DNA of 64,000 nt, from assembly GCA_963678315.1 (NCBI GenBank), contig OY782781.1:2592001-2656000 (forward strand), given 5' to 3'. Below the pieces are notes generated by a model that ran no database searches, was not told the origin of the DNA, and saw only the letters and a program-made list of their open reading frames with translations. Position 1 is the stretch's first letter; the number at the start of each line of letters is the position of its first letter. The stretch comes from Candidatus Cloacimonadales bacterium (GTDB taxonomy: Bacteria > Cloacimonadota > Cloacimonadia > Cloacimonadales > JAFGVF01). This document shows, piece by piece, positions 38,167 to 56,334 of the stretch. The position numbers and the translations under genes are program-made.

Positions 38167-38370
38167 TATATCTCCTATTTTATAAATACTAAGTGTTTAA
38201 GTCATTATAGCATGTAAGAGATATTTGGCAAGATTAAAATATTTATTTCATCAGAGGAAAAGTCTTTTTTGAATAGTCTAGGCACCTTTACAGCCTATTA
38301 GCCCAAGGCTGTGCTATGAGAAGTTTTCAAAACATCTCTACCTGGGTATTCAAGCTTCTAGCTTGTATCT

Positions 38371-38466
38371 GAGACGTTCTGCCGAACCTCTCTACAATAC
38401 CATGTTACTCCATCCTTACTGGTCTCCTTGAAAATTTGGCCTTTTTTCAAGGTGGCAAGTAAGGGT
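38371..38466. repeat. Repeat cluster 3: GTAG-type REP plus a ~52-bp palindromic element
   Basis: 38371-38395 matches 18101-18125 with 1 mismatch; 38415-38466 (CTTACTGGTCTCCTTGAAAA...GGCAAGTAAGGGT) matches 18706-18757. Confidence 0.8.
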
Positions 38467-38497
38467 CAACTATGAAAGAATCATTTTAGTAATAAGG

Positions 38498-41400
38498 TTA
38501 AATTCTTATCCCTACAACCGTTATATCATCTCTTTGAGAATGTTGACTATGGCAATCAGAGATTGTCTTAGATAACCCATCTTTAGCAGTAGCAAGACTA
38601 ATATTTCTATGTTGATTGATAAAGTCTATGAGTCCTTTTTGTTTAAATCTTTTTCTAGCACCGTCTTCAATTACAGCCATATCATAGATTCCATCTGTTG
38701 AAAGATATAATTCAATTTGATTATCATAACTCAATTGGAAGGCTTCGAAAGGTATATCTTTTGTATCACCTATACTTCTTTTTGTACCTTTAATAACTTG
38801 TAATTTTTCATTATCTTTCCTGAGAAACATATTGCATCTAGCTCCAATAAACTCAATCTCTTTGATAGTCTTATCGATTAGAACAATGCCAATATCAAGT
38901 CCAGCTTTTAAACCTGTATCTTTATCTCTAACTAAATTCCGGATACGATTATCAATTTCTTCAAGGCATTCATTAATTGAACTAAATTTACTATCCTTGA
39001 GAACATTATTCATAATAGAATTAGCAGCAATTGTCAAAAGTGCTCCAGGAACGCCGTGTCCTGTACAATCAACAACTGCACAGATAGCCCTATCCTTGTC
39101 TATTTGATAGAACCAGATAAAGTCACCACTTACTCTATCTTTTGGAAGATAGATAGAGAAGTATTCTTTTACGAAATTGCACACCTCTTTATCAGAAGGC
39201 AAGATAGATCTCTGCAGGGTCGCTGCATAGGTTATTGAGCTATTAATAAGATTGTTACTTTTCATAACTTCCAGCTTTTCTTCTTCTAATTCCTGGGTTC
39301 GGATAAGGACTAGTTCTTCTAACTTCTCCTTTGATTTGTTTAAATATCTAACCCTATATTTAATTATGAAAATAATTAGCATAGTGACTAAAAGTAGAAC
39401 GATTAATGTGTAAATAATTATCTTAATTATGTTTGGTATAACAACAAAAGGAATTGATTTTTGTTCAATAATATTACCTGAGGGGGATAAAATTCTTAAC
39501 TTTAATGTATATCTACCTAGAGGGAGGATACCATAGTCCTTAAAATTGTTTTTACTAAAGGTAGACCAATCGTCATCATATCCTTCTAGCCAGAAGCTAT
39601 ATTCAACACTTCTAAGATTGTTTAGGGAGTTGTATGAAGCGAATACCTTCACCTTATTCTTATCTGAATACTCAAAAATAACACTTCGATAATCATTGAA
39701 TATACTTTTGTACAAACGCGTATTTAGATTAGAATATAATATTCTTGTTTGTACATTTGATTCAACAATAATACTATAATCTCCATCTGTTGGTTCTTTG
39801 AACTTGTAAACACCTCCATCCGTTACTAAAATGAATGTGTTATTTTTAAGTATTGTACATCTACAAATTTGATCAGGTAAATAGTCATTGGTATCATAAG
39901 TTGTAAACCTATCCAACTCTTCAATATATTTTAGCAAATTATGTTGTTGCACAATCCATAATTTATCATTTTTATCAACTAGTACATCCCAAATATAATC
40001 AATTTTATCTCTTTCAGAACTAGCTATTTCAATAGCTTTATCGTTCTTCAGTTGCCATACCTTGGATAGATTTCTGCAATAACAATAAACAGATTGACCA
40101 GCATGCAGCAGTTTAACTTCTTGTTTTTTTAGCAAAGGCAGGCCAATATTGATTACTTTTGAAAAATCATTATTCATACAGCCTTCTAAAGGCACTTTAC
40201 AAATACTTGTTCCACTACTATCAGGATATGTTACATACAAAGTATCGTTAAAACAATAAATGTTCGCATAGTTATTATCAGGTAGATAGATAAAGTCTTT
40301 GTAGCTTAGCGAAAAGTACTTAATATTTCCATTAGTAAGTTCAAAAGGTATTAAATCACCTTTAGGAACCCTCACAGAACTTATCGTATCGGATTTATTT
40401 ATGAGTTCTTTGACATATAATGTTCCGTTTTCAAGAAGATATACTGTTGTTGCAGAATGATAAAGAAATGTCGACTCATCTAATTTTATCTTACCAGTAA
40501 TTGTTTCAGGTATTTTTAAAGCCACCTGCATAGAATCAACTTGCTTTTCTATTTGTTTAAAATTATCTTTATGAAGACAATTGAACTCATTGATATAATG
40601 TAAATATTTATATTTCATTTCTTTGTTATTAAAATTGATTGGATATAATTTATAGTCTAAAGTATCGATACTGAGTAAACTTAATGAATCTTCAGAAACA
40701 AAATCTGCATGAACTCCATCTACAACCCTATAAAATCCTCGAATTTCATATTCAAACCTTGATTCTCTAGATGATATCATAGCTTTTAAATCTAGTACCC
40801 TAGTCCCTTCTGAGCTAAAAATGAAACATAAATCTTTATTAACATAAACTTCATGAGGGCTATCATTAAATGGATAGTCAATAATTATAAATGAAGAATC
40901 TGACTTAACAATTATTTGACTATTTTTCCTGCTTGTTAATGTTAATGAGTACTCATCTTTTTTATAATAAGACAGTTGTGTAAACCTGTAAGAACTTGCT
41001 AGCTTTTTTTTACTATTAATATCAATTGTTTTATACATAATCTCATTATCATAGTTAGGACCAGGGAAAGTATAAAATGTCTCAATTAAACCATTTTTTA
41101 GTATTTTTAGACTACGAGATATTTTTGAAATAAATATTAACTCATTATCATATTCATATAGTTTATTATTACTAGCAAAATTACGTATACCCCAAAGATA
41201 GTCTTTCCCTTCAAATTGGTTTCTAATTTTATTTATAGCAGCATCCCAATTATTGCTTATGGTAAAATACACATCCTTAGCTGTAACATCTACATCAATA
41301 ATAGTTCTATCTCCTAGTTTTTTAGCCAGATTCCTGTCTATTTTAAAGTTATCTATGTTGTACAAGCTTGTTGCAGGTTTTTTACTCTCACCAAAAATAT

Positions 41401-42331
41401 CAAAAATTACAAGACTTTCATTATTAACTTTTACAACTCTTTGTAAACAGTCATCTGCTTTAATAATAACTTTCTTTTCAATTTCTCCTTTAGATATTTT
41501 CCAAAATACAGTACTTTCCTTCGTCTCATAATACACAACAAAAGAATTGCCTTTACTTTCACATACCTTGATATCATTCGTAGATAATAACCCAAAGTCG
41601 ATTGGATATTCTGCAACCCCATTCTCTCCCCAATATAGATATTTATCTTGCAGTAAGATTAGCATGTTCCCATTACTATTGATTGTGTGTTTAATTATAT
41701 CTTTGCTGTTGGGAATTACAAACCTTGATTCACTTACTGGTAATCCATTATGGTCAATTTCACTATTTTGGTAGAAATCTTCATTATTTTCAATCCTATA
41801 TATATAAGATTCATTTTCTAAATAAATAACTTTGTTGCAATCAGAGTGTATTCTCCTTGATTGTTGTATGTTGTAGCTGCTTATTGATCTATCATTTACT
41901 AATCGTACACTTTGTCCAAAAACTTTTATATAATTATCATTTTCAAAGAAGATAATATCCCTCAATGTATCAATAACAGTCAGATCTTTTTTAATCTCTT
42001 CTTCAAAAATTTGTAGAGGATATTCTTTATAAATATGAGATTGATCAAAGAATTCATAGCCATTGAAAAAATAAAACTTATCAGGATCAGCCCCTTCTCC
42101 TTTCTTTCTAAAAATAGCAAAGTTATCTTTAGTCACTCCCACTAGTTCATCTAGAATAGGATTACCATTTTTGTGAAGAAAAGAAGTGGTGTAAAGAAAT
42201 GGTTTATCTTCTTTTGTTATATGTATAGCATTTTCATATATATCACTATATTCCGAATTTACCTCGTTAAGAGCACATTCCAGGCTAGTAAACATAAGTA
42301 TAATCAAGCAAATTAAGATTATGTGTTTCAT
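38498..42331 (-). CDS. Membrane sensor with SpoIIE/PP2C phosphatase output (SiaA-like, copy 2)
   Basis: Signal peptide, ~900-aa beta-rich ectodomain, Y_Y_Y-like YSFWLEGYDDDW...LPLGRYTLKL, TM helix, coiled coil, PP2C motifs VSGDF, DCTGHGVPGA, STDG, RDDIT. Confidence 0.92.
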   Translation of the reverse strand: MKHIILICLIILMFTSLECALNEVNSEYSDIYENAIHITKEDKPFLYTTSFLHKNGNPILDELVGVTKDNFAIFRKKGEGADPDKFYFFNGYEFFDQSHIYKEYPLQIFEEEIKKDLTVIDTLRDIIFFENDNYIKVFGQSVRLVNDRSISSYNIQQSRRIHSDCNKVIYLENESYIYRIENNEDFYQNSEIDHNGLPVSESRFVIPNSKDIIKHTINSNGNMLILLQDKYLYWGENGVAEYPIDFGLLSTNDIKVCESKGNSFVVYYETKESTVFWKISKGEIEKKVIIKADDCLQRVVKVNNESLVIFDIFGESKKPATSLYNIDNFKIDRNLAKKLGDRTIIDVDVTAKDVYFTISNNWDAAINKIRNQFEGKDYLWGIRNFASNNKLYEYDNELIFISKISRSLKILKNGLIETFYTFPGPNYDNEIMYKTIDINSKKKLASSYRFTQLSYYKKDEYSLTLTSRKNSQIIVKSDSSFIIIDYPFNDSPHEVYVNKDLCFIFSSEGTRVLDLKAMISSRESRFEYEIRGFYRVVDGVHADFVSEDSLSLLSIDTLDYKLYPINFNNKEMKYKYLHYINEFNCLHKDNFKQIEKQVDSMQVALKIPETITGKIKLDESTFLYHSATTVYLLENGTLYVKELINKSDTISSVRVPKGDLIPFELTNGNIKYFSLSYKDFIYLPDNNYANIYCFNDTLYVTYPDSSGTSICKVPLEGCMNNDFSKVINIGLPLLKKQEVKLLHAGQSVYCYCRNLSKVWQLKNDKAIEIASSERDKIDYIWDVLVDKNDKLWIVQQHNLLKYIEELDRFTTYDTNDYLPDQICRCTILKNNTFILVTDGGVYKFKEPTDGDYSIIVESNVQTRILYSNLNTRLYKSIFNDYRSVIFEYSDKNKVKVFASYNSLNNLRSVEYSFWLEGYDDDWSTFSKNNFKDYGILPLGRYTLKLRILSPSGNIIEQKSIPFVVIPNIIKIIIYTLIVLLLVTMLIIFIIKYRVRYLNKSKEKLEELVLIRTQELEEEKLEVMKSNNLINSSITYAATLQRSILPSDKEVCNFVKEYFSIYLPKDRVSGDFIWFYQIDKDRAICAVVDCTGHGVPGALLTIAANSIMNNVLKDSKFSSINECLEEIDNRIRNLVRDKDTGLKAGLDIGIVLIDKTIKEIEFIGARCNMFLRKDNEKLQVIKGTKRSIGDTKDIPFEAFQLSYDNQIELYLSTDGIYDMAVIEDGARKRFKQKGLIDFINQHRNISLATAKDGLSKTISDCHSQHSQRDDITVVGIRI

Positions 42332-45300
42332 ATTCTTATCCCTACAACCGTTATATCATCTCTTTGAGAGTGTTGACTATGGCAATCAGAGATTGTCTTA
42401 GATAACACATCTTTAGCAGTAGCAAGACTAATATTTCTATGTTGATTGATAAAGTCTATGAGTCCTTTTTGTTTAAATCTTTTTCTAGCACCATCTTCAA
42501 TTACAGCCATATCATAGATTCCATCTGTTGAAAGATATAATTCAATTTGATTATCATAACTCAATTGGAAGGCTTCGAAAGGTATATCTTTTGTATCACC
42601 TATACTTCTTTTTGTACCTTTGACAACTTGTAATTCTTCATTATCTTTCCTGACAAACATATTGCACCTAGCTCCTATAAACTCAATCTCTTTGATAGTC
42701 TTATCTATTAGAACAATGCCAAGATCAAGTCCAGCTTTTAAACCTGTATCTTTATCCCTAACTAAATTCCGGATACGATTATCAATTTCTTCAAGACATT
42801 CATTAATTGAACTAAATTTACTATCCTTGAGAACATTATTCATAATAGAATTAGCAGCAATTGTCAAAAGTGCTCCAGGTACCCCGTGTCCTGTACAATC
42901 AACAACTGCACAGATAGCCCTATCCTTGTCTATTTGATAGAACCAGATAAAATCTCCACTTACTCTATCTTTTGGAAGATAGATAGAGAAGTATTCTTTT
43001 ACAAAATTGCACACCTCTTTATCGGAAGGCAAAATCGATTTCTGAAGGGTCGCTGCATAGGTTATTGAGCTATGCAAAGATTTTTGTTTATTAACAATTT
43101 CTAAAGTTTGTTGATCAACTAGACTAGCCAGTCTCTTCTTATCTCTATTTATTTTTTTAACTCTTCTTACAAAAAAAGCTCTAACAATTAATACTATCGC
43201 AGTAAGCAATAAGATTACATATATAACAATAATTACAATTTGTGGACCTAATCTACTAACTCTGAAAGGATAGATATCAGTCTCAATAATCTCACCATTA
43301 TCTAATTTAATTCTAGCTTGGACACTATAACGCCCTGGTTTTAAGATACCAAATTCCCTTTCAGCATTATTATTAAATTTAGGCCAGTCTGTATCATATC
43401 CCTGTAAAAAGATGGAATACTTAATATTTTTATCTGAGTAAAAACTATTACTTTTTATCCTAATTATTGTTTTCTTGTTGGAGACATATACATATCGATC
43501 AATAGTGTTCTCATTTGAAGCCTCCAAGTCCTTAAAAACATTTCCATCTTGAACAAAAGAGAAATTAAGAAATTTGTAATCTTGTTCAGGCTCATCGAAT
43601 AAAAAAAGTCCATTATTAGATGCTATGGCAATTTGCTTGTTATATGAATGAATGGAGGTAATATTGGTTGGAACTCCATAATAGGAATCATATTGTAAAA
43701 ACTCTTTACTTTGGGAGTTATATTTCAAAAGACTATTACTAGTTGAAAACCATAAGTTCCCCTCTGAATCTTTACAAGAACTTAATACTTCACCTTTGAT
43801 TTTAAAGCTTTTAATTTCATCATTCTTAAATCTATAAATGAAATTTTGATTACCATAGATAAAAACATTTTCCCCATCACTAGCAAATGATGGATCAAAG
43901 GATTTTTGCGAGAGTCTGTAGCTTTTAACCTTATCCTTAATCTTATCTAGATATGCTAGACTATCAACAGAAACAACATTTAACCTAAATTCATTGTTAA
44001 ATGTAGTATAGAATACTAAATCATCAAAACTTTCTATATAATTACCACAAAATCCTGATAGCCAAGGCTTAAAACAATATTTATTTTCAATTACATCATA
44101 TATATTTGTAGGTAAATCTGTTTTTTGTACACTAATTACAAAAATTTGTCTATAGTTTAACTTGGAAATAGCAAGTGCCAGTAAATGATTGCTATCTTTA
44201 AAATCTGTAACTAATGAATCTGTATCAGTGTTAATTAAGTAGGTCTGCCTTTTCTCATCAAATTTTAACTCAAAGTTTCCCTTTTCTTCTAGCTCAAATA
44301 CATATTTTGACAACTTTAATAAATTTTCTTTTGCTATCTGTTTAGGATAAATAGAATCTATAGAAAAAGATAATGTATCGACTAATAAAAAAGATTCTTC
44401 ACTTATCTCAATAAATCTTTTGCTTGTTTTGGGGAAAGTTACGTTTATCGAGTCAATGAAATTTTTAAAACTTTCATGTTCTCTAAGGTTTAGCTTTTCA
44501 CAAGGATGAAAAGCGATATAACTGTTATTATCTATAGAAAATAATCCCTTGTCATTTGATAAAATACTCTCAATAACTTTATCATCAAGCATTCTTATTG
44601 TGTTGTTGGAATTCTTTATTTTATAAAATGCTCTGTTAGTAAAACAGAGACTAATCTTACCAAAAGTCTGCATTAATTTGATTTCTTCCTGATGAGGAAA
44701 AATGATTAATTTACTTTCATCAAGATATTTAGTTCCAATATAAGATGTATTCTCCAGCTCTGAAACAAAAGAAAATTCATCAAAGCTTTTATAAGCAAGT
44801 TGTTTAATGACTCCAAGATTCGTGATAAGATAATTGTTCTGAGCAATAAGTAATTCATATGAGCTGTTAATATTACTTCCAATCGAAAGTGATCCTATCT
44901 TCCTTGTTATGTGACTATTAATAACAGCTGTTGTAATTAGTTCTTTTGTTGAGTCTATTTTTGGAAAAGATTTATAAGGAACTTCTTTTATTGCTTTAAG
45001 TTGTCCCTGACAATACTGAAAAATAGTTGGACCAGATGATTCTTTTTCTTTTGCTAAAATGAAGAGACTATTTTCAGCTGTGCAAAAATCATAAATTTGG
45101 TTTACTCCTAAACTTGATAATAGATCATCTTTATTTTTTATCTGCAAGTTATCTTTATCTAATAGCCAATATTTACAATAATAGTTTTCATCGTCAGTTT
45201 CGTAAAGCGTTTTAATCAAAACAATAGTATTATACTCTGGTAAGATGAAGTATTTATCAAAAGAACCATTTGCGCTGTTTTTTTGTGTTATTTTTCCAGA

Positions 45301-46098
45301 TTCTACATTTAATATTTCTAATGAGTCACTTTCACTTCTGTGGGAATAAGTAATTTTATCTTCACTAAAATCAAGTAATTGCAAGTATTTTCCTACTGGA
45401 TGAGTAAGAGAGTATTTTCTGATTTCTTCATCCCAGACAAAATAAGCATCATCTGAGACAGCACAAGCCACACCTAAGCTATCTACTTCAAACTTAATAT
45501 CATTTGGAAAATGTACCTTTTCAACACAGTCATTCAAATTCCGATTAGTAAACTTACTAAAGTCTATTCTACATATATAGTCTTTTTCTCTAAAATACAA
45601 TCGATTATTAATCGTTTTAGAAATTGGAATGGGATGTTCAGCCTTATGAAATCCATATCTTTCATCCGCTTTAATTTCAAATCTATCGTTATAAAACTGC
45701 AGGTAAGAGCTTTCATCGATTTTTGCCACATACTTGAGTGTATCTTGATATTCATAATCAATCTTAGACAAAGTTAACCCTTTAACACTATAATCGCTAA
45801 TTTGAAATGTTACATCTTGAACATGAATACCATCGAATTTATAGTATCTAGCAAAGTTTTCATCATCAGCATCAGGATTCTTTTTAAGCCAAATGTAGCC
45901 TTCATAGTCTTGAAATAGAGCTTTATCAACTTCTGGGAATCCATCTTTTTGAGAATACTTAGTGATATACTGATAAGAATCTTCAACTCTAGATATAAGA
46001 CTACATTCATCCTTAAAAGACTTGAAATTCTCTGTATTAGCAGATAAGACAACAACTGCAAGAAGAGGACAAATTACCAATAACCACCTTATTTTCAT
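42328..46098 (-). CDS. Membrane sensor with SpoIIE/PP2C phosphatase output (SiaA-like, copy 1)
   Basis: Same architecture (DSEGNLWFST propeller blade, YSIFLQGYDTDW...LKPGRYSV, TM helix, intact PP2C motifs). Start is ATG 46098 after GAGG, or 46110. Confidence 0.92.
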   Translation of the reverse strand: MKIRWLLVICPLLAVVVLSANTENFKSFKDECSLISRVEDSYQYITKYSQKDGFPEVDKALFQDYEGYIWLKKNPDADDENFARYYKFDGIHVQDVTFQISDYSVKGLTLSKIDYEYQDTLKYVAKIDESSYLQFYNDRFEIKADERYGFHKAEHPIPISKTINNRLYFREKDYICRIDFSKFTNRNLNDCVEKVHFPNDIKFEVDSLGVACAVSDDAYFVWDEEIRKYSLTHPVGKYLQLLDFSEDKITYSHRSESDSLEILNVESGKITQKNSANGSFDKYFILPEYNTIVLIKTLYETDDENYYCKYWLLDKDNLQIKNKDDLLSSLGVNQIYDFCTAENSLFILAKEKESSGPTIFQYCQGQLKAIKEVPYKSFPKIDSTKELITTAVINSHITRKIGSLSIGSNINSSYELLIAQNNYLITNLGVIKQLAYKSFDEFSFVSELENTSYIGTKYLDESKLIIFPHQEEIKLMQTFGKISLCFTNRAFYKIKNSNNTIRMLDDKVIESILSNDKGLFSIDNNSYIAFHPCEKLNLREHESFKNFIDSINVTFPKTSKRFIEISEESFLLVDTLSFSIDSIYPKQIAKENLLKLSKYVFELEEKGNFELKFDEKRQTYLINTDTDSLVTDFKDSNHLLALAISKLNYRQIFVISVQKTDLPTNIYDVIENKYCFKPWLSGFCGNYIESFDDLVFYTTFNNEFRLNVVSVDSLAYLDKIKDKVKSYRLSQKSFDPSFASDGENVFIYGNQNFIYRFKNDEIKSFKIKGEVLSSCKDSEGNLWFSTSNSLLKYNSQSKEFLQYDSYYGVPTNITSIHSYNKQIAIASNNGLFLFDEPEQDYKFLNFSFVQDGNVFKDLEASNENTIDRYVYVSNKKTIIRIKSNSFYSDKNIKYSIFLQGYDTDWPKFNNNAEREFGILKPGRYSVQARIKLDNGEIIETDIYPFRVSRLGPQIVIIVIYVILLLTAIVLIVRAFFVRRVKKINRDKKRLASLVDQQTLEIVNKQKSLHSSITYAATLQKSILPSDKEVCNFVKEYFSIYLPKDRVSGDFIWFYQIDKDRAICAVVDCTGHGVPGALLTIAANSIMNNVLKDSKFSSINECLEEIDNRIRNLVRDKDTGLKAGLDLGIVLIDKTIKEIEFIGARCNMFVRKDNEELQVVKGTKRSIGDTKDIPFEAFQLSYDNQIELYLSTDGIYDMAVIEDGARKRFKQKGLIDFINQHRNISLATAKDVLSKTISDCHSQHSQRDDITVVGIRI

Positions 46099-46123
46099 AC
46101 CAAACCTCATTTAATATTAAAGA

Positions 46124-47074
46124 CTAGTAAACTTTTTCTAACAACCTTAAAATATTTTCTTTTGTAGCTTTAGATTTATCAATGATCAGCTTATCTCCCT
46201 CAATTCTATAAGCATTTTCAATGTCTTCTTTTTCAGATTTGAAGGTAATCAACTGGTGAGTTATCTTAGGATGGTTAAATCCTTTCAATATTTTTTCATC
46301 TGGAGGATTGCAGTTGATATATTCTTGAGCTATTCCCCATGTAGTATGGCAAATCTGTATTTCATCAACTTCGGCACTCTGTTCAAGTCTGGAAGCTAGA
46401 TTAACGGTTTTACCACTTATTGTATAATCCATCCTTTCAGATGAACCAAAGTTACCCACCATACACCAGCCAGTAGCAATTCCGATTCTTATATGAAATG
46501 GTTGTTCATAGCCCATCAGAAACCACTTTTTACGAATTGTCTTCATCTTCTCTCTCATCTCATAAGACATTTGAAGGCAATTCTTAACATTATCTTCTAT
46601 ACTTGAATTACCTGGAGCTCCAAAAAAAACCATGATAGCATCACCAATATACTTATCTAATGTACCACCATATTTATTAACAATAATGGTCATCTCCTCT
46701 AAGTAGCTATTGAGGAATTCGGAGAGCGTTTCTCCGTCCATCTCTGAGGTAATTGTACTAAAACTCTTTATATCAGAAAAGAAAACTGTTATATTTTTCC
46801 TTACTGTTTGATAGTTTTCTGCAAGCTCTCTTCCTTTGACGATATTTTTATAGAGTTGTTGTGATACATATTTCTTTAGTCTGTGTTCAATTCTTCTGAG
46901 TTTAGCAGACTGCTTATCATTGTGTTTAGTTAGCATTTTAATCTGTTTAAGTAATTTGGAATACTCAAGCATTAATTGACCGAACTTTTCTTTACAAACT
47001 TTATCACTAATTTTATCTACATCTATATCTGACAGATCAGCTATGAATTTTGATTCTTTCTCAAACATACTCAT
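46124..47074 (-). CDS. Soluble class III adenylate cyclase with N-terminal helical stalk
   Basis: FSDIKSFS (metal Asp), LDKYIGDA (Lys and second Asp), RIGI, DYT (Thr), VNLASRL (Asn, Arg). Confidence 0.93.
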   Translation of the reverse strand: MSMFEKESKFIADLSDIDVDKISDKVCKEKFGQLMLEYSKLLKQIKMLTKHNDKQSAKLRRIEHRLKKYVSQQLYKNIVKGRELAENYQTVRKNITVFFSDIKSFSTITSEMDGETLSEFLNSYLEEMTIIVNKYGGTLDKYIGDAIMVFFGAPGNSSIEDNVKNCLQMSYEMREKMKTIRKKWFLMGYEQPFHIRIGIATGWCMVGNFGSSERMDYTISGKTVNLASRLEQSAEVDEIQICHTTWGIAQEYINCNPPDEKILKGFNHPKITHQLITFKSEKEDIENAYRIEGDKLIIDKSKATKENILRLLEKVY

Positions 47075-47077
47075 AAT

Positions 47078-47449
47078 CTAATAGCCAATATAATCAATAT
47101 TTAAATGAGTTTCATCAGTCAAATCTTCACCAGTCTCTTTAAGATCTTCATCATCTTCAGGATATCTCCATTTAATTTTAATTGATTTTCCAGAATCAGC
47201 CATCTCTTGAAAATACTGTATTAAATCGTAGATTGACTTATAAGAACTACTATTAAGATATTCAATATCGAATACAATTTCAGCAGAATCTTTCATTGTG
47301 AAGTATTCAGTTACCCAATTGACAACAGGTTCAAAAAACTCAAGTGTATTTTCAGGATAAGACTCACCTTCAAAAGATAAAACTTCCTTATTATAATCTA
47401 GATCTATTTTTAAGGTTTGTTCTGTTGCTTCTATATTTAAATTGTTCAT
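47078..47449 (-). CDS. siaC: SiaC-family (DUF1987) regulatory phosphoprotein
   Basis: LSFEGESYPEN..EFFEPV..W, YLNSSSYK, I.W.Y...DED..E.GE match the SiaC family pattern. Confidence 0.92.
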   Translation of the reverse strand: MNNLNIEATEQTLKIDLDYNKEVLSFEGESYPENTLEFFEPVVNWVTEYFTMKDSAEIVFDIEYLNSSSYKSIYDLIQYFQEMADSGKSIKIKWRYPEDDEDLKETGEDLTDETHLNIDYIGY

Positions 47450-47991
47450 ATATTCTCCTTATTCATTGTTACTTGGATTTTTAGAAAGTAATAATCCTCA
47501 TTAACTTGCTTGAAATCATAATCAATCTTAGATTTAGATTTTAAGGCAACTTCAACAAGCCCAAACCCAGCACCTTCTCTCTTTCTCTCTTTTTTTAATG
47601 CTTGCTTTTTCATTAGAGTTAGTTCATCTGTAGATTTGCTATTTATCATATCCAAATAAGTAGAGATTGCATCAATTTTATTTTTATGAACTGCATTTCC
47701 TGATTGTACAACGAAACAATTGTTTTCTTCATAAACATGCATAATACCTTCACTTACTATATGTGAGTCATGTTCTGTTCTGTTGGCTGAATAATGTACT
47801 ATATTTTGGGCCATTTCAACAAAAACAGAAAATATCCTTCTACTTAATTTTTTTTCTTTGCCAAATAACTTTGATTTAAGGGATTTAGCTAAATCATTAT
47901 AAATATCTTCTGCAAAATTACCACAAAATATAACTATTGTCTTCTTATTTTCCCGAGTAAACATATTGTAAATATCGAATAAATCTGACAT
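47446..47991 (-). CDS. siaB: SiaB-family protein kinase (DUF6272, GHKL-like)
   Basis: IFSVFVEMAQNIVHYS, QSGN, GAGFGLVEVA..S; ATGA-coupled to siaC. Confidence 0.92.
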   Translation of the reverse strand: MSDLFDIYNMFTRENKKTIVIFCGNFAEDIYNDLAKSLKSKLFGKEKKLSRRIFSVFVEMAQNIVHYSANRTEHDSHIVSEGIMHVYEENNCFVVQSGNAVHKNKIDAISTYLDMINSKSTDELTLMKKQALKKERKREGAGFGLVEVALKSKSKIDYDFKQVNEDYYFLKIQVTMNKENI

Positions 47992-48035: not shown

Positions 48036-48063
48036 ATTATTAGTTTAGATTATTTTTTGTCAA
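48036..48063 (-). promoter_or_regulatory. Putative promoter of the siaB operon
   Basis: TTGACA-16 nt-AATAAT; AAGGAG SD before siaB. Confidence 0.45.
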
Positions 48064-48121: not shown

Positions 48122-51100
48122 TTATTGAACTTTACTTTTCATTCTATCTAGCTGTTGCTGAGTTATAGTTGTAAAGTTTTTATCTTTTGCTTTCAAAAAC
48201 AGTTGATTAGCTAGTGACAGCTTTTCAATACCAGCTTGAATATTCTTAGTAATTTCAAGTGTTATTCCCCAATTAAATAGAGCCTTGCCTTCTCCAATTA
48301 CATCTCCTATCTGGTTAAGAGATGATTGTTGCCTTGAATAGTATTCTACTGCTTTCTCAAAATCCTTTTTCTCTCTATATACATTTGCTAGATTTCCGAT
48401 AGTATGTGCAATTCCCTCAATATCATTCAACTCTTCCTGGATTTTTAAATTCTGCTCATATATATATTTGGCTTTATCAATTTTACCTTGCATAAAAAAA
48501 GCATCTCCCAAGCCATCATTGCAAAAAGTTACTCCAACTCTATCGCCAATCTCTTCAGCTATAAGCTTTGCTTTATTCAAAAAATCACAGGATTGGTTAG
48601 GTTCATTTATTACATTCTTAATATAACCCATATTGTATAAAACTGTATGTTCTTGTTGTCTATCACCAATATATCTAGCGATTTTTAAACATACTTCTAA
48701 ATTTTCTTGGGCTTTTTGATCTTGCCCTTCTGCAAATTGAATCATCGCTAGTTCAGTGAGCACTTTTGAATAACCATTTTTATCACCAATCTCTTCTGCG
48801 ATTTTATAAGCCTTACTGTAATAATCAATCGCTAATTGAGGATTACCTGTCCTTATAGATATTGTCCCTAAAGATGTGTAAGCAATTCTAATGTATAGCT
48901 TTTTATTCTCAGCTATAGCTAAATCAAGAAGCTTAGAATAGTAGTATTTAGCATTTTCATAATTTGCTTTATCGAGATAAAATTGTCCTTGAACTGAATT
49001 TAAAAGAATCTTATTTACTATAGATAAACTTTTTTCTTCTGAATTTAGCATATCACGAGTTTTGATGAATTCGTCATCTAGTGAGCAAGCCCTATAAAAG
49101 TCTAAGGCAGTTAAACGTATACGGTTTAAAATTTCTAAAGATTTTATCTTTTTTAAAGCCTTTGCATAAACTGAAGAAAATCTCTTAAAATCCTTTTTCA
49201 ATTCATAGAAGCGTAAAATATTTTGAAGATATCTATCCTGCTGAAAATCTCTTAATTTATCGAAACGTAATACTTTAAGAATTTCTTTAATTTCACTAAC
49301 ATCCCCTCTGATAAGTAATAACTCTAAATATTCCAACCTTAAACTGTTTTTGATACTTTTATCAAGAGTATTATCTATAGCAATTTTGTAGTAATAACTT
49401 GAGTCAACAAATGCAGAAATTGAATAATTCTTTTCAGCCGCTAATTTACACCAAAATGCAATTTCAGCTTTTATATCAGCTAAAATATAGTGATTAGCAA
49501 TTATTTCATAATATTCATATTGGTTATCTGAGAAATTATTGATATAAAACTCAGCAATCTTAACATGCATAGATTTTTTTTCTTTATGCAGTATAGTTCG
49601 ATAAATTGCCTCCCGCATAGTTTTATTATTGAATAAATACTCAACTTCTGGTAACATTTTCTTTTCAAGTATGTATTTATCTGCTGATAACTTAATCAAA
49701 ACATCTTCAATATGGATATTTATCTGTTTATCCGTTAATTTTTTAATCATACTATTAGAAAAACTTACTCCAATAATCGATGCATATTTAAGAATACTTT
49801 TTGATTCTTGCGACAGTTTTTCAAACTGATTAAGCAGTAAATTTTCATAGCTCTTAGGAATAATATTTTTTTGGATTAATTGGTTCAAATCAGCAAGATT
49901 AAAAATAGCTCTATTGTTATCCCAATTAGATTTTATTATCCTTAATGTATCAACGGTGTATGCTGGATTCCTATCTGTTAGATCAAGTAAATTACTTATT
50001 GCTTGATTCGATATTTTAATCTCAAGACTTTTAGCTAAGCTTCTAGTTATATTCTCTGTGAACTTCTTTGTTCTAAATAAGGCTGGATTACATTTATCTA
50101 AATCTTTTACATCTGACTTATCTCTACTTGTTAAGATAATCTTTATTCCAAGATTTGAAAGTTTTGATACAACTACACTACAAAGGAGTTTAGAAAACTG
50201 ATCTAGCCATTGATAATTATCAATAACAAATACTTTGTAGTCTTTGAGCAGAAACAAGAACATTTCTGAAAATATGTCAATAATAAGCCCTAAGTTGATT
50301 TTATCATCCCTTTTTAACAGATAATCCTCAATTAACTGATAACTAACATGCAAATCATTTTGATCAATGAAATCCTTAATAATTAATCTGTCGTTTATTA
50401 TATTAGTAATATTCAGTTTAATATTGAACAGCTGGTAAACTAAGTTCAAGGGTCTAAGACCATCATGTTCAGAGAGAGAGAATAAAAATACATCATTAGA
50501 AACATAGTTATGCTTAAGATAAGTGTGCGTTAATAATGATTTCCCTGATCCTGATTCCCCATATACAATGTTAATCATGGGTTTGAACAGAGAAGTAATA
50601 TCATCATAACCTAAAAGTTCTACATTTGCATACCTTTTGTTAAAGATATCCCATGTATCAGATATTTCTTTCGTTATATGAAATATCGAGATATCCTCAG
50701 CAATACCTTTGACTTTAACTCTTTTCAATAGTTCTGTTTCAAATCGACCAACCAGATGTTCTAAAATTTCTTTCGAGAAAGTAACCTTGCCATATTCAGA
50801 CTCATTCATAAGTCTTGCTGCGATATTTACAGCATTACCAATTATGCCATATTCAAAGCGATTCTTTGCTCCTAGTATTCCAGCAAATACCTTATTATAT
50901 GTTAATCCTATTTTAGATTTTATAAACATACTAGGAAGTTCAACAATACGTTTTGAACACACGAAAGCTCTTTGAATATCATCTTGATGAGTATTAGGTA
51001 ATCCAAATGAGATTAAAACTACGTATCCTTTATCACTATAGTCAATTTTATTGATTAATCCATCATAATAATATACAATATCTTGCACTTGCTTGTAATA

Positions 51101-51850
51101 AGAATTAAAAGATTCAATTGGAATATCTTCTTTGTCGCCTATATCCTTTAATGACAAGAAAATAGTTACAGAATCTCGCAGTTCTCCCGTAGCAGAATTT
51201 AAAGTAAGCCAATCAGTAACTTTTGGATGGATAAATTTATCGCTACAAGAAGATAAATCATCATTCTTTGCTTTATTAACATCCTTTAAAATGTAATCAT
51301 CTGAAGTCTCGATTTCATAAAGGTCAGATATAGAAAAAGTTCTATCCAGAACCTCTCCTGTGAAATAGTAATCCAAATGATATTTTTGTGAGCCAACAAT
51401 ATGCACATTTAGTTTGCCCCACCCACTACTATGATGGAAATCTATCTCAACAGAATACTTTTCATAAATAGTCTTGTTCAATAAGATTAAGCTTGACTTC
51501 ATTGATTTAAGACATGATTCAATAATTGGAATAACATCCTCTTCCGACCCAGGAAATATAGCCTGCAATGAGTCTCCACCATATTTTACTAAATCACCAT
51601 TATAATGATCAATTATATTGTACATTAAATCAAAGTAACTATTTAAAATATCTATTATAATTTCTACTGAGTAATAACCATTTTTACTAGTAGTTTCAGT
51701 CAGTTTTGTGAAAGACTTCACATCAGTAAATATAACACCTGCATTAATTTCCTTAGTAATTGGTATGTCTATTTTATTCTTACAATCTCTGACTAAATTT
51801 GTTATTATCTTAGGTATTAATCCTCTTAGCTGTTGGATATCATCCTCCAT
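48122..51850 (-). CDS. Twin class III cyclase + STAND-type ATPase + TPR protein (soluble-AC-like)
   Basis: C1 has FTDVKSFT and KYGGDS; C2 has DKG and GNAVNIAARL; Walker A GESGSGKS, Walker B FVIDNYQWLD; multiple C-terminal TPRs with IGD repeats. Confidence 0.92.
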   Translation of the reverse strand: MEDDIQQLRGLIPKIITNLVRDCKNKIDIPITKEINAGVIFTDVKSFTKLTETTSKNGYYSVEIIIDILNSYFDLMYNIIDHYNGDLVKYGGDSLQAIFPGSEEDVIPIIESCLKSMKSSLILLNKTIYEKYSVEIDFHHSSGWGKLNVHIVGSQKYHLDYYFTGEVLDRTFSISDLYEIETSDDYILKDVNKAKNDDLSSCSDKFIHPKVTDWLTLNSATGELRDSVTIFLSLKDIGDKEDIPIESFNSYYKQVQDIVYYYDGLINKIDYSDKGYVVLISFGLPNTHQDDIQRAFVCSKRIVELPSMFIKSKIGLTYNKVFAGILGAKNRFEYGIIGNAVNIAARLMNESEYGKVTFSKEILEHLVGRFETELLKRVKVKGIAEDISIFHITKEISDTWDIFNKRYANVELLGYDDITSLFKPMINIVYGESGSGKSLLTHTYLKHNYVSNDVFLFSLSEHDGLRPLNLVYQLFNIKLNITNIINDRLIIKDFIDQNDLHVSYQLIEDYLLKRDDKINLGLIIDIFSEMFLFLLKDYKVFVIDNYQWLDQFSKLLCSVVVSKLSNLGIKIILTSRDKSDVKDLDKCNPALFRTKKFTENITRSLAKSLEIKISNQAISNLLDLTDRNPAYTVDTLRIIKSNWDNNRAIFNLADLNQLIQKNIIPKSYENLLLNQFEKLSQESKSILKYASIIGVSFSNSMIKKLTDKQINIHIEDVLIKLSADKYILEKKMLPEVEYLFNNKTMREAIYRTILHKEKKSMHVKIAEFYINNFSDNQYEYYEIIANHYILADIKAEIAFWCKLAAEKNYSISAFVDSSYYYKIAIDNTLDKSIKNSLRLEYLELLLIRGDVSEIKEILKVLRFDKLRDFQQDRYLQNILRFYELKKDFKRFSSVYAKALKKIKSLEILNRIRLTALDFYRACSLDDEFIKTRDMLNSEEKSLSIVNKILLNSVQGQFYLDKANYENAKYYYSKLLDLAIAENKKLYIRIAYTSLGTISIRTGNPQLAIDYYSKAYKIAEEIGDKNGYSKVLTELAMIQFAEGQDQKAQENLEVCLKIARYIGDRQQEHTVLYNMGYIKNVINEPNQSCDFLNKAKLIAEEIGDRVGVTFCNDGLGDAFFMQGKIDKAKYIYEQNLKIQEELNDIEGIAHTIGNLANVYREKKDFEKAVEYYSRQQSSLNQIGDVIGEGKALFNWGITLEITKNIQAGIEKLSLANQLFLKAKDKNFTTITQQQLDRMKSKVQ

Positions 51851-51858
51851 TATCTTTA

Positions 51859-52257
51859 CTAAATTGTATTTTTTATCCTATTAACAAGGATTTTATTTAC
51901 TCCTAAAAAAAACTTGTTAGCGATAATACTGTTTTTTACTAATAAATTGCATAATTCAGAGTAATCAATTTTAACTATTTCACAATCCTCAATAGCTTTT
52001 ACAAAGGCTGATCTATGAATTGGAATCGTAAAATTCAATTCCCCTATAAGTGTTCCACTGTTTAATTCTGCAACTTTTATTAGCTTATTTTCATCACATA
52101 TTTCTACAATAGCTTTACCAGATTTAATAAGAAGCAAATTTCTATCTCTTTCGCCACTGCTTATTATATATTCGTCCTTATTGTAATTACTTATTGAAGA
52201 TATATTTAGAATTTGTTTAACCTCTGTATGATCAAAATTAAATACTTTTGGTAACAT
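51859..52257 (-). CDS. Stand-alone cyclic-nucleotide-binding domain protein
   Basis: IKSGKA.V, GELNF...RSAFVKAIEDC phosphate-binding cassette; no HTH. ATG 52257 overlaps the upstream TAA. Confidence 0.88.
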   Translation of the reverse strand: MLPKVFNFDHTEVKQILNISSISNYNKDEYIISSGERDRNLLLIKSGKAIVEICDENKLIKVAELNSGTLIGELNFTIPIHRSAFVKAIEDCEIVKIDYSELCNLLVKNSIIANKFFLGVNKILVNRIKNTI

Positions 52258-52676
52258 TAACATCCTCTTTTTTTGATTTCATTTATTCTAATTAATTTTT
52301 CAACCAAGGAATCATTCAGAGCAGCATTGATTTTACTATTCATTGAATTTGATTCTTCAAGTATTGATAAATTTAAGGAGATTCTTTCTAAATCAACACT
52401 TGTCTCAGAAAAGTATGATAAGAATGTTTCATTTTCAAAAACAGACTCTTCACCAAAAATTTCTCCTTCAGATAAAGTCATTACTTCTTTTTTATCTTCT
52501 TCAAGACTAATTGTTACAAGCCCTTTTTTGATGATATAAACTGAGTCTTTTAATATTTCAATCCTACAATTAGAATTTACTTCAATTCTTTCAATATTGA
52601 AATTTAAGTCTTCAATTTCTTCTTTACTTAAGTATTTAAATAAATCTACACTATTCTTGCGTACATAAATATTCAT
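52257..52676 (-). CDS. Stand-alone (degenerate) cyclic-nucleotide-binding domain protein
   Basis: LFKYLSKEEI, VYIIKKGLV, LSEGEIFGE; no Arg in the cassette. Confidence 0.8.
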   Translation of the reverse strand: MNIYVRKNSVDLFKYLSKEEIEDLNFNIERIEVNSNCRIEILKDSVYIIKKGLVTISLEEDKKEVMTLSEGEIFGEESVFENETFLSYFSETSVDLERISLNLSILEESNSMNSKINAALNDSLVEKLIRINEIKKRGC

Positions 52677-55600
52677 TAAAAATTCCTAATCTTCTTCAAT
52701 GTTATTAAGTTAAAAATAAGACAGAATACTATGATTACAGATTCTGCAAACTTCCTAGTAGAGTATTTATTATTGAAAACAATATAGTTTTTCGAAATGA
52801 AATGATTTTTTGAATCTTTCATAGACTTTACATGAGCAAAATCTACTAACATAGAATTGCTTTTATTAATATAATTATCATGAGGGTATAGTGACAAGAT
52901 TGCATTTTTCTGATCAGTCAGGTTACTTATTAAATCCAAATCACTTTGACCCTTTAGTTTATTATCAAGATCTTTTAGAACTCGAGATCGTTGATTATTG
53001 TTTACCGAATTTAAGGTGATATTTTCGAACAACCACTTAGTGGGTATTACTTCACAGAATTCAGGAACTTCTCTTTTAGAATTAATCTTTAAATTTTTAT
53101 TCATTGAACTAAATGGAATAATTGCTCCGCCAAAGATTATCATCGGAATTAAAGTCAAAGGTAGTACCATAAGTAAGCTCTTTCTCTCTTTTATTGTTGC
53201 TGAAGAAAATAAGCCAATACTAATACCACACAATCCTGAAAGATTCAATGTAGTAAAATATACCCAAAAATGACCCTTTATTTCCAGTATATAGGTTGTT
53301 ATAAATACATACAATAATGTTTGGATAATATTAAAAATCTCCAAAGTTGTTAGTTTTGCTACAAGATAGCTTAATGCAGATAGACCTACTTTTTTTTCTC
53401 TAACAATAATAAGCTTTTCCGGAAGTATTTCATATATAGATCCTGACAAGCCCAAAAAGATAAATATCAAGATTGATATAAAATTGAAATGAGGGATATT
53501 TCCATTATCCCAAAATGAGTAATTAGTCCCTGAACTATTCTTTAGCAGAACTGATGTGAATAGCCCTAATAGAAAAGGAACCACTGACAACATAATTATG
53601 TTTTGTATACTGGATAAACTATTATGTAGATCTCTAAAGAAGCAATACCAAAATTGAATTAACTTATCAACTAAGCTATGATTTTTATTTTTCTTTTCTT
53701 TAGAGAAAACATAAGAATCTTTGTTTTTATCCCCCTTAAATTGTTCCATCAAGACTTTAGATTCTCTCTTCTTTTTCCAATAGTTCCGAGGAAAAAGCCT
53801 TTCTGTATGCTTATCTTTTGAGCTATTTACAGTTTTATATTCTACAATATCAAAGAAATAATCTGGATTTTTTCTCTCTTTTTTTATTGTTAATTCTTTT
53901 TTATTTATAATTATTTGCTTTAATTCTTCATCAAAATAGTCAAATGCTTTTGATACATCACCAAAATAGACTACAACCCCTTGTTTATCTAAGAAAAGAA
54001 GTTTATCAAATTTACTAAACAATAATGAACTTGGTTGATGGATTGTAGTTAATATAATCTTTCCTGTAAACTTTAAATCACTTAGAATTGATAATAATTG
54101 TTCGGAATCTTTGGAAGATAAACCAGATGTTGGTTCATCAAGAATAAATATTGCAGGATCGAATAAAAGTTCAAGGGCAATATTTAATCTTTTTCTTTCC
54201 CCCCCACTTAGAACTTTCTTTTCTTCGTTACCAACAACTAGATTCTTTTTTTCTAGAAGACCCACCTTATTCAGTATAGAATCGATTTTATCAGCTAATA
54301 AAGGACCTTTCATTCTGCCAACAGACCTTATTTTTGCATAAAAAAACATATTTTGAAAGACTGTTAGATTATTAAATAGTAGATCACTTTGAGGAACATA
54401 TCCAATATTTTTAATTATATCTTTATATTTATCAATAAAGTCCATATCATCGACTTGGATATTCACTTCATCTGCAGATAATTCACCATTAAGTACTTTA
54501 AGTAAGGTAGTTTTTCCACTTCCACTTGGCCCCATTATTGCTGCTATTTCACCTTTATTCAATTTAAAAGAAACATCAGTTAAACCTAATATTTTATTAT
54601 TAAAATAATGTTTCACTTGCTTCACATTCAATGTTTCATACACTATCTCATGTTTTACTAGTTCTCCGCTTTTCAAAATTTTGTAGGATACATTCTTCCA
54701 AGTTAAGATATCTATACTGGAATTAATTTCTATCTGACCATTAACTTGTTTGTTGTTTACTAATATATTACTGTTATTTACGATTAAATTATATTTATCT
54801 CTATTTATTTCGAGTATAGCGATACTATTTTCATGTAAGACTTGTGAAGTTATTAATCCATTCATATACTCAACAATATGTAATTCATACTTTAAATTGC
54901 TTGATTGATCAGATTTATATAAATCAATTACAGGATTTTTATTTTTAGCCCCAATATAACCATCTAAATAAAGTTTTCGGATTCTCTTTATCTTATTCCT
55001 ACTTCTTCTTTTGTTAGGTAAGCATAATGTAAAATGGTTTTCCTCTTGAAATATTAGTTCATTTTCACTGTAACTAGATATAAGCTGAGAAGTATCAAGA
55101 ACTTTATTTTGAAACATTTTTGTTAAAAGACTCTTTGTCAAAATGATGTTATTAAGTTCAGGGAAAGCCCTATCTTCAACAAACTTTGCTATGATAATTT
55201 GAGTATTGTTGACCTTTGTAAGAGAAACAATATAATCTTCATATAATTTATGAAAGATTATTTTACAACTTTTAGAGCTTATATCGACATCTCCATTTTC
55301 ATTCGAAAACAAGAGACTACTATTGAAACTAATGTCAAAAACATCATCCCAGAAACCATTATGGTCTAAGATAAAACTTGCTTTCTTACCACAAAAGAAA
55401 TCAATTAAGTCATCAAATAAATTAACATTAATTCTAAGTAAATCTAACACTTTTATCATCTCAATAGAACCAATATTGTAGGTATGAATTTTATATCTAA
55501 CCACAAATTGAAACACTTTAAGCATCAATAGTATCTTATCTGCATTGTTTAAATGGTCGTTTAAAAAGTTTGCTGAATAGCGTGTAGGATATGGTTCTCT

Positions 55601-55777
55601 AGCAAGTTCAGAAATCACTTTAGGGTCGATTGAATTAATCTTTAAATCAACAATTATAGAACTTAAAAACTCAATCTTGTCTATATTATCATCGACATTA
55701 TTACCACTTAAAAAAAAGAGTGATATAATTGATTTTAGAATAGCTTTATCTATCTCCATTGAACCTTTCCAAAACAT
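52676..55777 (-). CDS. ABCG/White-like fused ABC transporter (NBD-TMD) with long N-terminal extension
   Basis: GPSGSGKTT, YVPQ, LSGGERKRL, LDEPTSGL, TIHQPS; C-terminal ABC2-type TM helices; ~380-aa N-terminal region. Confidence 0.92.
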   Translation of the reverse strand: MFWKGSMEIDKAILKSIISLFFLSGNNVDDNIDKIEFLSSIIVDLKINSIDPKVISELAREPYPTRYSANFLNDHLNNADKILLMLKVFQFVVRYKIHTYNIGSIEMIKVLDLLRINVNLFDDLIDFFCGKKASFILDHNGFWDDVFDISFNSSLLFSNENGDVDISSKSCKIIFHKLYEDYIVSLTKVNNTQIIIAKFVEDRAFPELNNIILTKSLLTKMFQNKVLDTSQLISSYSENELIFQEENHFTLCLPNKRRSRNKIKRIRKLYLDGYIGAKNKNPVIDLYKSDQSSNLKYELHIVEYMNGLITSQVLHENSIAILEINRDKYNLIVNNSNILVNNKQVNGQIEINSSIDILTWKNVSYKILKSGELVKHEIVYETLNVKQVKHYFNNKILGLTDVSFKLNKGEIAAIMGPSGSGKTTLLKVLNGELSADEVNIQVDDMDFIDKYKDIIKNIGYVPQSDLLFNNLTVFQNMFFYAKIRSVGRMKGPLLADKIDSILNKVGLLEKKNLVVGNEEKKVLSGGERKRLNIALELLFDPAIFILDEPTSGLSSKDSEQLLSILSDLKFTGKIILTTIHQPSSLLFSKFDKLLFLDKQGVVVYFGDVSKAFDYFDEELKQIIINKKELTIKKERKNPDYFFDIVEYKTVNSSKDKHTERLFPRNYWKKKRESKVLMEQFKGDKNKDSYVFSKEKKNKNHSLVDKLIQFWYCFFRDLHNSLSSIQNIIMLSVVPFLLGLFTSVLLKNSSGTNYSFWDNGNIPHFNFISILIFIFLGLSGSIYEILPEKLIIVREKKVGLSALSYLVAKLTTLEIFNIIQTLLYVFITTYILEIKGHFWVYFTTLNLSGLCGISIGLFSSATIKERKSLLMVLPLTLIPMIIFGGAIIPFSSMNKNLKINSKREVPEFCEVIPTKWLFENITLNSVNNNQRSRVLKDLDNKLKGQSDLDLISNLTDQKNAILSLYPHDNYINKSNSMLVDFAHVKSMKDSKNHFISKNYIVFNNKYSTRKFAESVIIVFCLIFNLITLKKIRNF

Positions 55778-56302: not shown

Positions 56303-56334
56303 AAAAAGAGAGTGAAATAAACTTCACTCTCTTT
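56303..56334 (-). terminator. Terminator after the giant surface-protein gene
   Basis: AAAGAGAGTGAA-6 nt-TTCACTCTCTTT stem ending in a T-tract on the minus strand. Confidence 0.8.

Follow-up and report, generated by a model that had tools for sequence, protein, structure and literature searches.

A five-gene operon in a 64,000-nucleotide window of the Candidatus Cloacimonadales bacterium genome (GenBank assembly GCA_963678315.1, contig OY782781.1, positions 2,592,001 to 2,656,000) probably encodes a SiaABC-type serine/threonine partner switch in which a class IIIb adenylate cyclase takes the place of the diguanylate cyclase SiaD as output, as judged from sequence comparisons and a modelled complex. 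Here, "the window" is this whole 64-kb stretch of DNA, and coordinates are positions within it. SiaABC-type partner switches are known from one organism, Pseudomonas, and with one output, the synthesis of cyclic di-GMP for biofilm formation. In P. aeruginosa SiaABCD (6k4e, 6kko, 6kkp, 7e6g; passages of PMC8457831, PMC7647112 and PMC12834913), a membrane PP2C phosphatase, a DUF6272 kinase, a DUF1987 phosphoprotein and an output lacking a sensor are likewise encoded in one operon. The genes of the Cloacimonadales operon are the following.

47446..47991, minus strand: siaB, 181 aa, DUF6272.
47078..47449, minus strand: siaC, 123 aa, DUF1987 (PF09345).
46124..47074, minus strand: predicted class III (IIIb-type) cyclase, 316 aa, PF00211 match at 1.1e-28, without a sensor domain of its own.
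42328..46110, minus strand: PP2C sensor 1, 1260 aa, with a signal or anchor, an ectodomain (Reg_prop, Y_Y_Y), a single transmembrane helix around residue 960 and a PP2C domain of the SiaA type.
38498..42331, minus strand: PP2C sensor 2, 1277 aa, of the same build as sensor 1 with a different ectodomain.

We propose that SiaB would phosphorylate SiaC at Ser67, and that the two membrane phosphatases would strip the phosphate from SiaC upon stimulation of their ectodomains. Unphosphorylated SiaC would dock in pairs on residues 44-64 of the cyclase, with Ser67 packing against the invariant Asp53; a phosphate on Ser67 would clash at Asp53. Docking would stabilise a parallel coiled coil that continues into the cyclase transducer element (CTE) with its heptad phase fixed, the catalytic domains would form a productive dimer, and cyclic AMP (cAMP) would be made. 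The first readers of cAMP would most likely be two small cyclic nucleotide (cNMP)-binding proteins encoded 4 kb upstream.

The first-pass annotation, which had been made from the DNA without database searches, described this five-gene order together with its overlaps and the 3-nt spacer, and both the minus-strand open reading frames and the DNA junctions agree with it. ATGA overlaps occur at siaB/siaC and at PP2C-1/PP2C-2, the siaC-cyclase junction reads TAG, 3 nt, ATG, and 13 nt separate the cyclase from PP2C-1. The Pfam families expected by that annotation were all matched in the corresponding genes, namely DUF6272 (PF19788; 1.3e-34), SiaC (DUF1987; 1.7e-33), Guanylate_cyc (1.1e-28) and SpoIIE (1.8e-17 and 7e-18). 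SpoIIE stands after Y_Y_Y in both sensors, and Reg_prop is additionally matched in sensor 1. A single terminator-like site within the operon falls in the PP2C-1 coding sequence and is probably due to chance.

In agreement with the first-pass annotation, no GGDEF gene is found in the 64-kb window. GGDEF is matched just twice in the whole 2.99-Mb single-contig genome, at 448 kb and at 166 kb, and each place lies over 2 Mb from the window (2,592-2,656 kb); a search of the genome with a profile of the cyclase N-terminus, described below as the docking module, returned no match in either gene. Exactly one SiaB (DUF6272), one SiaC and one docking module are encoded in the genome, all in this operon. 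The genome also has nine cyclase-domain matches, corresponding by place and frame to about seven genes, and four SpoIIE matches over the cut-off.

By their closest solved relatives, the PP2C, the kinase and the phosphoprotein of the window are of the SiaA, SiaB and SiaC types. The best PDB match of SiaB is P. aeruginosa SiaB (6kko_A, E 2.9e-11), and the blocks E..QN..HY and GAG.GL (N-box and G-box) of its GHKL-like ATP site are kept. SiaC is best matched by 6kko_C/7e6g (E 2.4e-16). Its residues N66-S67-S68 are aligned with N67-T68-S69, and the predicted phosphosite therefore occupies the same position as in P. aeruginosa SiaC but is a serine, Ser67, at the place of Thr68. Across 12 aligned SiaC sequences the Thr68-equivalent residue is Ser in 10 and Thr in 2, and Y64, N66, S68, S69 and K71 are invariant. 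The PP2C domain is closest to P. aeruginosa SiaA (6k4e, E 6.4e-37), the next PP2C reaching only 3e-4. The metal-site blocks GDF, DCxGHG, TDG and RDD of both sensors are aligned with those of SiaA, the metal-binding Asp/Gly residues of SiaA-type PP2Cs being taken from a list given in part of PMC7647112.

Unlike SiaABCD, the operon has two phosphatases, both of which carry large Reg_prop/Y_Y_Y ectodomains and one transmembrane helix. Compared by BLASTP, the two sensors are 59% identical over their last 538 residues and nearly identical from about residue 1020, while in the ectodomains one N-terminal stretch of 200 residues is 23% identical and nothing else is clearly shared; that the two sensors differ, as first proposed, thus applies to the ectodomains. 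The near-identity extends to the DNA.

42328..43072, minus strand: PP2C-coding segment, copy 1, with about 97% DNA identity to 38498-39242.
38498..39242, minus strand: PP2C-coding segment, copy 2, with about 97% DNA identity to 42328-43072.

The 3' ends of the two genes show 25 mismatches in about 745 nt, identity then falls to a background of about 30% within about 60 nt, and a repeat of 300 nt at 98% was also reported. Near-identical ends with such a sharp boundary look like the product of a recent gene conversion or domain swap. Differing ectodomains and near-identical PP2C domains suggest that two different inputs are joined to one phosphatase specificity.

The cyclase can be divided into the following parts.

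46880..47074, minus strand: predicted N-terminal SiaC-docking module, residues 1-65, comprising a short helix and the first part of a long stalk helix.
46883..46945, minus strand: predicted core docking motif, residues 44-64, with invariant L48 and D53, delimited by the modelled interface and the family alignments.
46805..46888, minus strand: CTE and linker, residues 63-90, placed by PDB alignments, the LGRY sequence and a short helix.
46250..46801, minus strand: catalytic cyclase homology domain, residues 92-275, from Pfam and the PDB match.

A Lys/Thr pair is the mark of ATP-specific class IIIb adenylate cyclases. In a PDB search, residues 89-277 match P. aeruginosa CyaB (3r5g, E 5.8e-55), and Spirulina CyaC (1wc0) ranks second. 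D101, K141, D145, T218, N225 and R229 are invariant in 30 full-length family members and are aligned with the same residues of CyaB and CyaC, which have the metal Asp pair, the Lys/Thr pair, the Asn and the Arg in common with the cyclase described here; the catalytic set (two Asp, Asn, Arg) and the Lys/Thr pair had been recognised correctly in the first reading. The comparisons support a class IIIb-type adenylate cyclase with cAMP as the predicted product. It is highly improbable that the switch controls the enzyme but that the product is another cyclic nucleotide, such as cyclic GMP: a few substitutions can shift class III specificity, as reported for Cya2 E488K in a passage of PMC5995499, but the Lys/Thr pair is invariant in the 30 members and common to CyaB and CyaC, the two best PDB matches.

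The cyclase has relatives over its full length, 42-66% identical, in Cloacimonadota, Desulfobacterota (Desulfonema) and Acidobacteriota. The C-terminal tail of about 40 residues (46127-46249; hairpin and helix in the model) is conserved across the family. In contrast to what we take to be the build of CyaB and CyaC upstream of the crystallised domain, the cyclase's N-terminal part is a predicted 65-residue SiaC-docking module, and no membrane or sensor domain is present.

In an AlphaFold model of the cyclase (predicted local distance difference test, pLDDT, 82), helices at residues 5-15, 25-69 and 72-79 are followed by the catalytic domain and by a small C-terminal hairpin and helix. Residues 60-269 are aligned with the linker-CTE-cyclase part of the phytochrome-cyclase fusion 6fht_A, and residues 64-232 with photoactivated cyclases. 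The order docking helix, CTE, catalytic domain is assigned because residues 60-66 are where the PDB alignments with cyclases that include the linker start, and because the family consensus LGRY resembles FGRY, given as the CTE motif in part of PMC5995499. As in photoactivated cyclases (5m2a, 5x4t) and in 6fht, which have a dimeric helical linker leading into the CTE whose register sets activity (same source, in part), a helical linker would govern catalysis; in those proteins, however, the sensor is fused in cis, whereas here a separate protein would clamp the linker in trans.

The output differs from SiaD in its catalytic part, a PF00211 class III cyclase only as opposed to a GGDEF diguanylate cyclase, and its stalk feeds a CTE. 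As in SiaD, an N-terminal helical stalk bears a docking motif around a Ser/Asn-Asp core, with one motif per cyclase chain compared with the two described for SiaD in part of PMC8457831. A second motif in proteobacterial cyclase stalks, suggested by a split phmmer match, was rejected, as the alignment shows a coiled-coil insertion of 14 or 21 residues. Searching 1.84 billion proteins with a profile of the module gave matches in 798 representative clusters at E<=1e-3 and in 113 at E<=1e-10, the best at 6e-21, and the match almost always falls at protein residues 1-70.

The genes flanking the cyclase were compared at 80 cyclase loci of other genomes, among the matches listed; these are mostly unrelated cyclases retrieved with catalytic-domain patterns, and the named close relatives, Desulfonema among them, lie outside this set. 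According to phmmer, siaB-siaC lies next to the cyclase in 9 of these 80 loci, directly upstream on the same strand in eight and, in locus L005, just downstream on the opposite strand. The module is present in all nine of these linked cyclases, a count that is partly circular because the module profile was built from the same positive loci. Of the remaining 71 loci, some of which lie on short contigs, none has siaB, siaC or the module; only this result and the genome samples below are independent of the building of the profile. A SiaA-like PP2C adjoins in 6/9 positive loci. The gene order of the window is B-C-output-A-A, compared with A-B-C-D in P. aeruginosa, and loci L004, L017 and L064 have PP2C-siaB-siaC-cyclase, as in siaABCD except for a different last gene.

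Among 201 sampled genomes of Cloacimonadota, 29 carry one module each. In the 28 other than that of the window, siaB-siaC is directly upstream of the module gene in 26, and the module is part of a full-length cyclase in 23; the remaining five are two module-only proteins of 155 aa, two GGDEF proteins and one histidine kinase. The module occurs in 28 of the 40 genomes that have SiaC and in 1 of the 161 that do not; as the sampled genomes are kin, these counts are given without a statistic. The operon is accessory, since the module is carried by just 2 of 10 further genomes in its family. Two relatives from this family have the order PP2C-siaB-siaC-cyclase-PP2C; a second PP2C follows in one of them (L118), and the contig of the other ends there. 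Both siaB and siaC are found in all of 20 extended loci. In Alphaproteobacteria, 8 of 301 sampled genomes hold 10 module genes, of which 8 are directly behind siaB-siaC, one is about 2 kb from siaB-siaC and one is on a contig too short to show its neighbours. These 10 genes encode three cyclases, two GGDEF proteins, four histidine kinases and one SpoIIE protein. The siaB-siaC-cyclase linkage is therefore kept in other genomes, which the first-pass annotation had made a test of its proposal. The presence of the module beside siaB-siaC across phyla, whatever the output domain, supports the view that it is the docking part for SiaC.

Two natural siaA-siaB-siaC-diguanylate cyclase operons were found, in Pseudomonas oryzihabitans (L083) and in Stutzerimonas stutzeri (L082, canonical SiaD type). 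In an hhalign comparison, the cyclase module is matched to the N-terminus of the L083 diguanylate cyclase with a probability of 96% (E 3.5e-9, 66 columns), and the two are taken as homologous. The likeness to the SiaD stalk that had been noticed from the sequence is thus strong for this second type of SiaBC-linked diguanylate cyclase.

A complex of two copies of cyclase residues 1-100 and two copies of SiaC was modelled along with three controls. The median score of the complex is 0.82, compared with 0.24 for the best of the three controls, the mark applied being reached by 116 of 157 solved complexes and by 2 of 215 mismatched pairs. Between runs, at least 95% of the contacts recur, and the partner has a pLDDT of 92 or more. 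Contacts in the cyclase involve residues 1-4, 44, 47-58, 60-61 and 64, and those in SiaC residues 10-11, 29, 31, 33, 35-36, 64-68, 70-72, 74, 99, 102, 106 and 109-110. In the model, Ser67 of SiaC contacts L48, T49, H51, N52 and the invariant D53. SiaC contact residues 10, 29, 31, 64, 66-68, 70, 74, 102, 106 and 109 are the aligned equivalents of Q10, D29, Y31, Y65, N67, T68, S69, I71, M75, R103, L107 and E110, which are listed at the SiaC-SiaD interface in a section of PMC8457831. The comparison with the SiaC-SiaD complex suggested by the first reading thus yields a modelled interface that uses the SiaC positions of the crystal structure. In addition, the two SiaC molecules sit on a parallel two-helix stalk in the model, as in the active SiaD complex.

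The coupling of the docking motif to the catalytic domain was analysed in 206 stored sequences matching both the docking-motif and the CTE patterns. The spacing between the motif Asp and the CTE Tyr is 16 residues in 73 sequences, 23 in one, 30 in 38 and 37 in 91, so that 203 of the 206 follow 16+7n; the other three spacings, 55, 67 and 68, are probably mis-hits of the patterns. Many of these sequences are close relatives, and it is therefore the three or four length classes that count, not the 203 sequences. The stalk varies in length by whole heptads, as would be needed for a register signal to pass along a continuous coiled coil.

Several results, including the partial circularity and the kinship attached to the counts above, weigh against a SiaC-controlled adenylate cyclase. 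No module match is found in 12 of the 40 SiaC-bearing Cloacimonadota genomes; SiaC thus has targets of other kinds, and a second target may exist here. A PP2C gene adjoins in only 12 of the 20 extended loci; among these loci 16 are of cyclase type, and 8 of them have it. The match of the cyclase module to canonical SiaD (L082) is weak (hhalign probability 11%, E 0.0027), and for this type the likeness noticed in the stalk holds but is slight; in favour of docking, the match falls on the second of the two repeated motifs of SiaD, nearer the GGDEF domain, a motif described in part of PMC8457831 as a SiaC-binding site. The solved SiaD chain 7e6g_A ranks 18th (E 0.48, residues 58-100) behind designed coiled coils when the PDB is searched with the stalk profile; with designed coiled coils as its top matches, that search was set aside as evidence on its own for a likeness to SiaD. 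Moreover, the motif in the window departs from the family consensus at two SiaD contact positions, with Asn52 for Ser and Ser56 for Gln.

In a rival reading, which we consider very unlikely, the cyclase would only be co-transcribed, with SiaC acting elsewhere or only titrating SiaB and the module being a generic dimerising coiled coil. The genomes in which SiaC presumably has other partners elsewhere, and the ease with which weak profile matches arise from coiled coils, speak for it. However, the module lies at the extreme N-terminus, has the invariant non-heptad residues E7 and D53 and is matched with E-values down to 6e-21; it is placed beside siaB-siaC whatever the output and is nearly confined to genomes with SiaC, and the genome of the window has no second copy of it.

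Two further points concern the modelled complex and the direction of control. A similar complex, 7E6G, had already been solved, and the pass of the model therefore indicates likeness rather than binding by this copy. That SiaC would activate rather than inhibit the cyclase is argued from the analogy with SiaD and from the requirement of class III cyclases for a dimer. Were the sign reversed, unphosphorylated SiaC would hold the stalk in an unproductive register and inhibit the cyclase, and the sensors would switch cAMP synthesis off. A cyclase without another sensor domain could be constitutively active alone, and a linker can lock coiled-coil/CTE-linked cyclases in an inactive state (PMC5995499, in part). 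Inhibition is nevertheless unlikely, because in the sole studied case, as passages of PMC8457831 describe it, SiaC activates by way of an active dimer and SiaD alone is inactive, and because the modelled arrangement of two SiaC molecules on a parallel two-helix stalk is the geometry of active SiaD.

Besides adenylate cyclases, the module is found on several other kinds of output. The best 150 of the 798 module clusters were tallied by a hand count of Pfam results, as follows.

Cyclase domain: 13 (one with GAF, one fused to GGDEF).
GGDEF without a cyclase domain: 28.
Histidine kinases, many of them hybrid: 33.
SpoIIE: 4.
GAF-HD_5: 1.
GAF only: 2.
PEPCK fragment: 1.
No family, mostly short fragments: 68.

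Behind siaB-siaC in locus L016 comes a module-bearing cyclase and then a module-bearing hybrid histidine kinase (L016:6863-9334, and also in L146), which has the domains HisKA-HATPase_c-REC-Hpt and the module at residues 99-167; in this operon, one switch would have two outputs. In L101, L104, L123:2468-2932 and L126:2468-2932, from two related Cloacimonadota genomes, PP2C-siaB-siaC is followed by a 155-aa module protein without a recognisable output domain. Proteins of about 490 aa from Desulfobacterales and Desulfonema (P0005, P0011, P0012, P0014, P0020, P0022 and P0046) have the same N-terminal region, followed by a cyclase and then by GGDEF; the signature of this last domain seems close to canonical in P0020 but degenerate in P0005 and P0012. 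In these proteins, two second messengers may be under the control of a single stalk. In a broader reading, to which we give an even chance, the module would be a universal SiaC receiver that plugs one Ser/Thr phospho-switch in trans into dimeric, coiled-coil-driven enzymes, among them adenylate and diguanylate cyclases, histidine kinases, PP2Cs and HD-type phosphodiesterases; the window would then hold a whole pathway, from two sensors through SiaC, the cyclase and cAMP to two cNMP-binding proteins beside an ABC exporter.

Partner switches acting on diguanylate cyclases are not limited to SiaABCD. HsbA-HsbD of P. aeruginosa and BgrV-BgrR of Sinorhizobium are STAS-type switches controlling diguanylate cyclases, as cited in a passage of PMC8457831. 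In these systems too, a small phosphoprotein of STAS-like fold binds a second-messenger cyclase and modulates it according to phosphorylation state, but they have canonical STAS proteins and GGDEF outputs and no class III cyclase output. Full-text literature searches, which covered sources outside subscription journals and supplements, returned no paper linking SiaB/SiaC to an adenylate cyclase, in agreement with the earlier statement that no characterised example was known. DUF1987 proteins have been proposed to modulate adjacent proteins, in general terms only, in the part of PMC8457831 used here. Candidate reports of a link between a partner switch and an adenylate cyclase were discarded: in PMC9127174 the link is merely the bacterial two-hybrid method, and PMC12834913 and bioRxiv 2022.03.11.484041 contain general remarks only.

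Upstream of the operon and on the same strand are four genes, which overlap or are spaced by no more than 8 nt and encode an ABC exporter, two cNMP-binding proteins and a 1242-aa protein.

48036..48063, minus strand: promoter-like site, TTGACA, 16 nt, AATAAT, matching 11/12 consensus positions, in the 130-nt gap before siaB.
48122..51850, minus strand: protein of 1242 aa that combines two partial cyclase domains with AAA_16 and TPR repeats.
51859..52676, minus strand: two small cNMP-binding proteins of 134 and 139 aa (PF00027, 2.1e-11 and 5.8e-7), accounting for two of the four cNMP_binding matches in the genome.
52676-55777, minus strand: ABC exporter, ABC_tran plus ABC-2 membrane domains.

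The promoter-like site is a match to a sigma-70-like consensus only, in a region that gave 124 such sites compared with 114 expected from shuffles. The two small cNMP-binding proteins are candidate readers of the cyclic nucleotide; together with the 1242-aa protein and the operon, they have the appearance of a signalling island for cyclic nucleotides. No Pfam match was obtained for residues 1-400 of the ABC exporter even at E<=1, and an Atlas look-up gave a weak TerB lead (0.84) for its N-terminus. Upstream of the exporter, 56353-63486 encodes a probable surface protein of 2377 aa, rich in Ig-like, PKD and DUF1573 repeats, and a strong hairpin terminator-like site follows this gene at 56305-56334. 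At the other end of the operon, the 331-nt gap after PP2C-2 (38167-38497) is richer in G+C than its surroundings and folds somewhat better than shuffles (z -2.4); no Rfam match was obtained for it, either in the window at gathering scores or in the gap at E<=1.

If the proposed mechanism is true, the Cloacimonadales enzyme would be the first adenylate cyclase from bacteria found to be under trans control by a phosphoprotein that clamps its linker, and it would offer a clean natural system for the transmission of coiled-coil register through the CTE. Hundreds of seemingly sensor-less cyclases of 320-350 residues in Cloacimonadota, Desulfobacterota and Proteobacteria would gain a known input. 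If the module is indeed a universal receiver, SiaC targets would be readable from sequence alone. The same module occurs on histidine kinases, diguanylate cyclases, PP2Cs and an HD-type protein, behind siaB-siaC wherever the context is visible; this suggests a switch that can be plugged into bacterial signalling enzymes in general as their controller. If this pattern is true, Ser/Thr phosphorylation would be a general upstream layer over second-messenger and two-component signalling.

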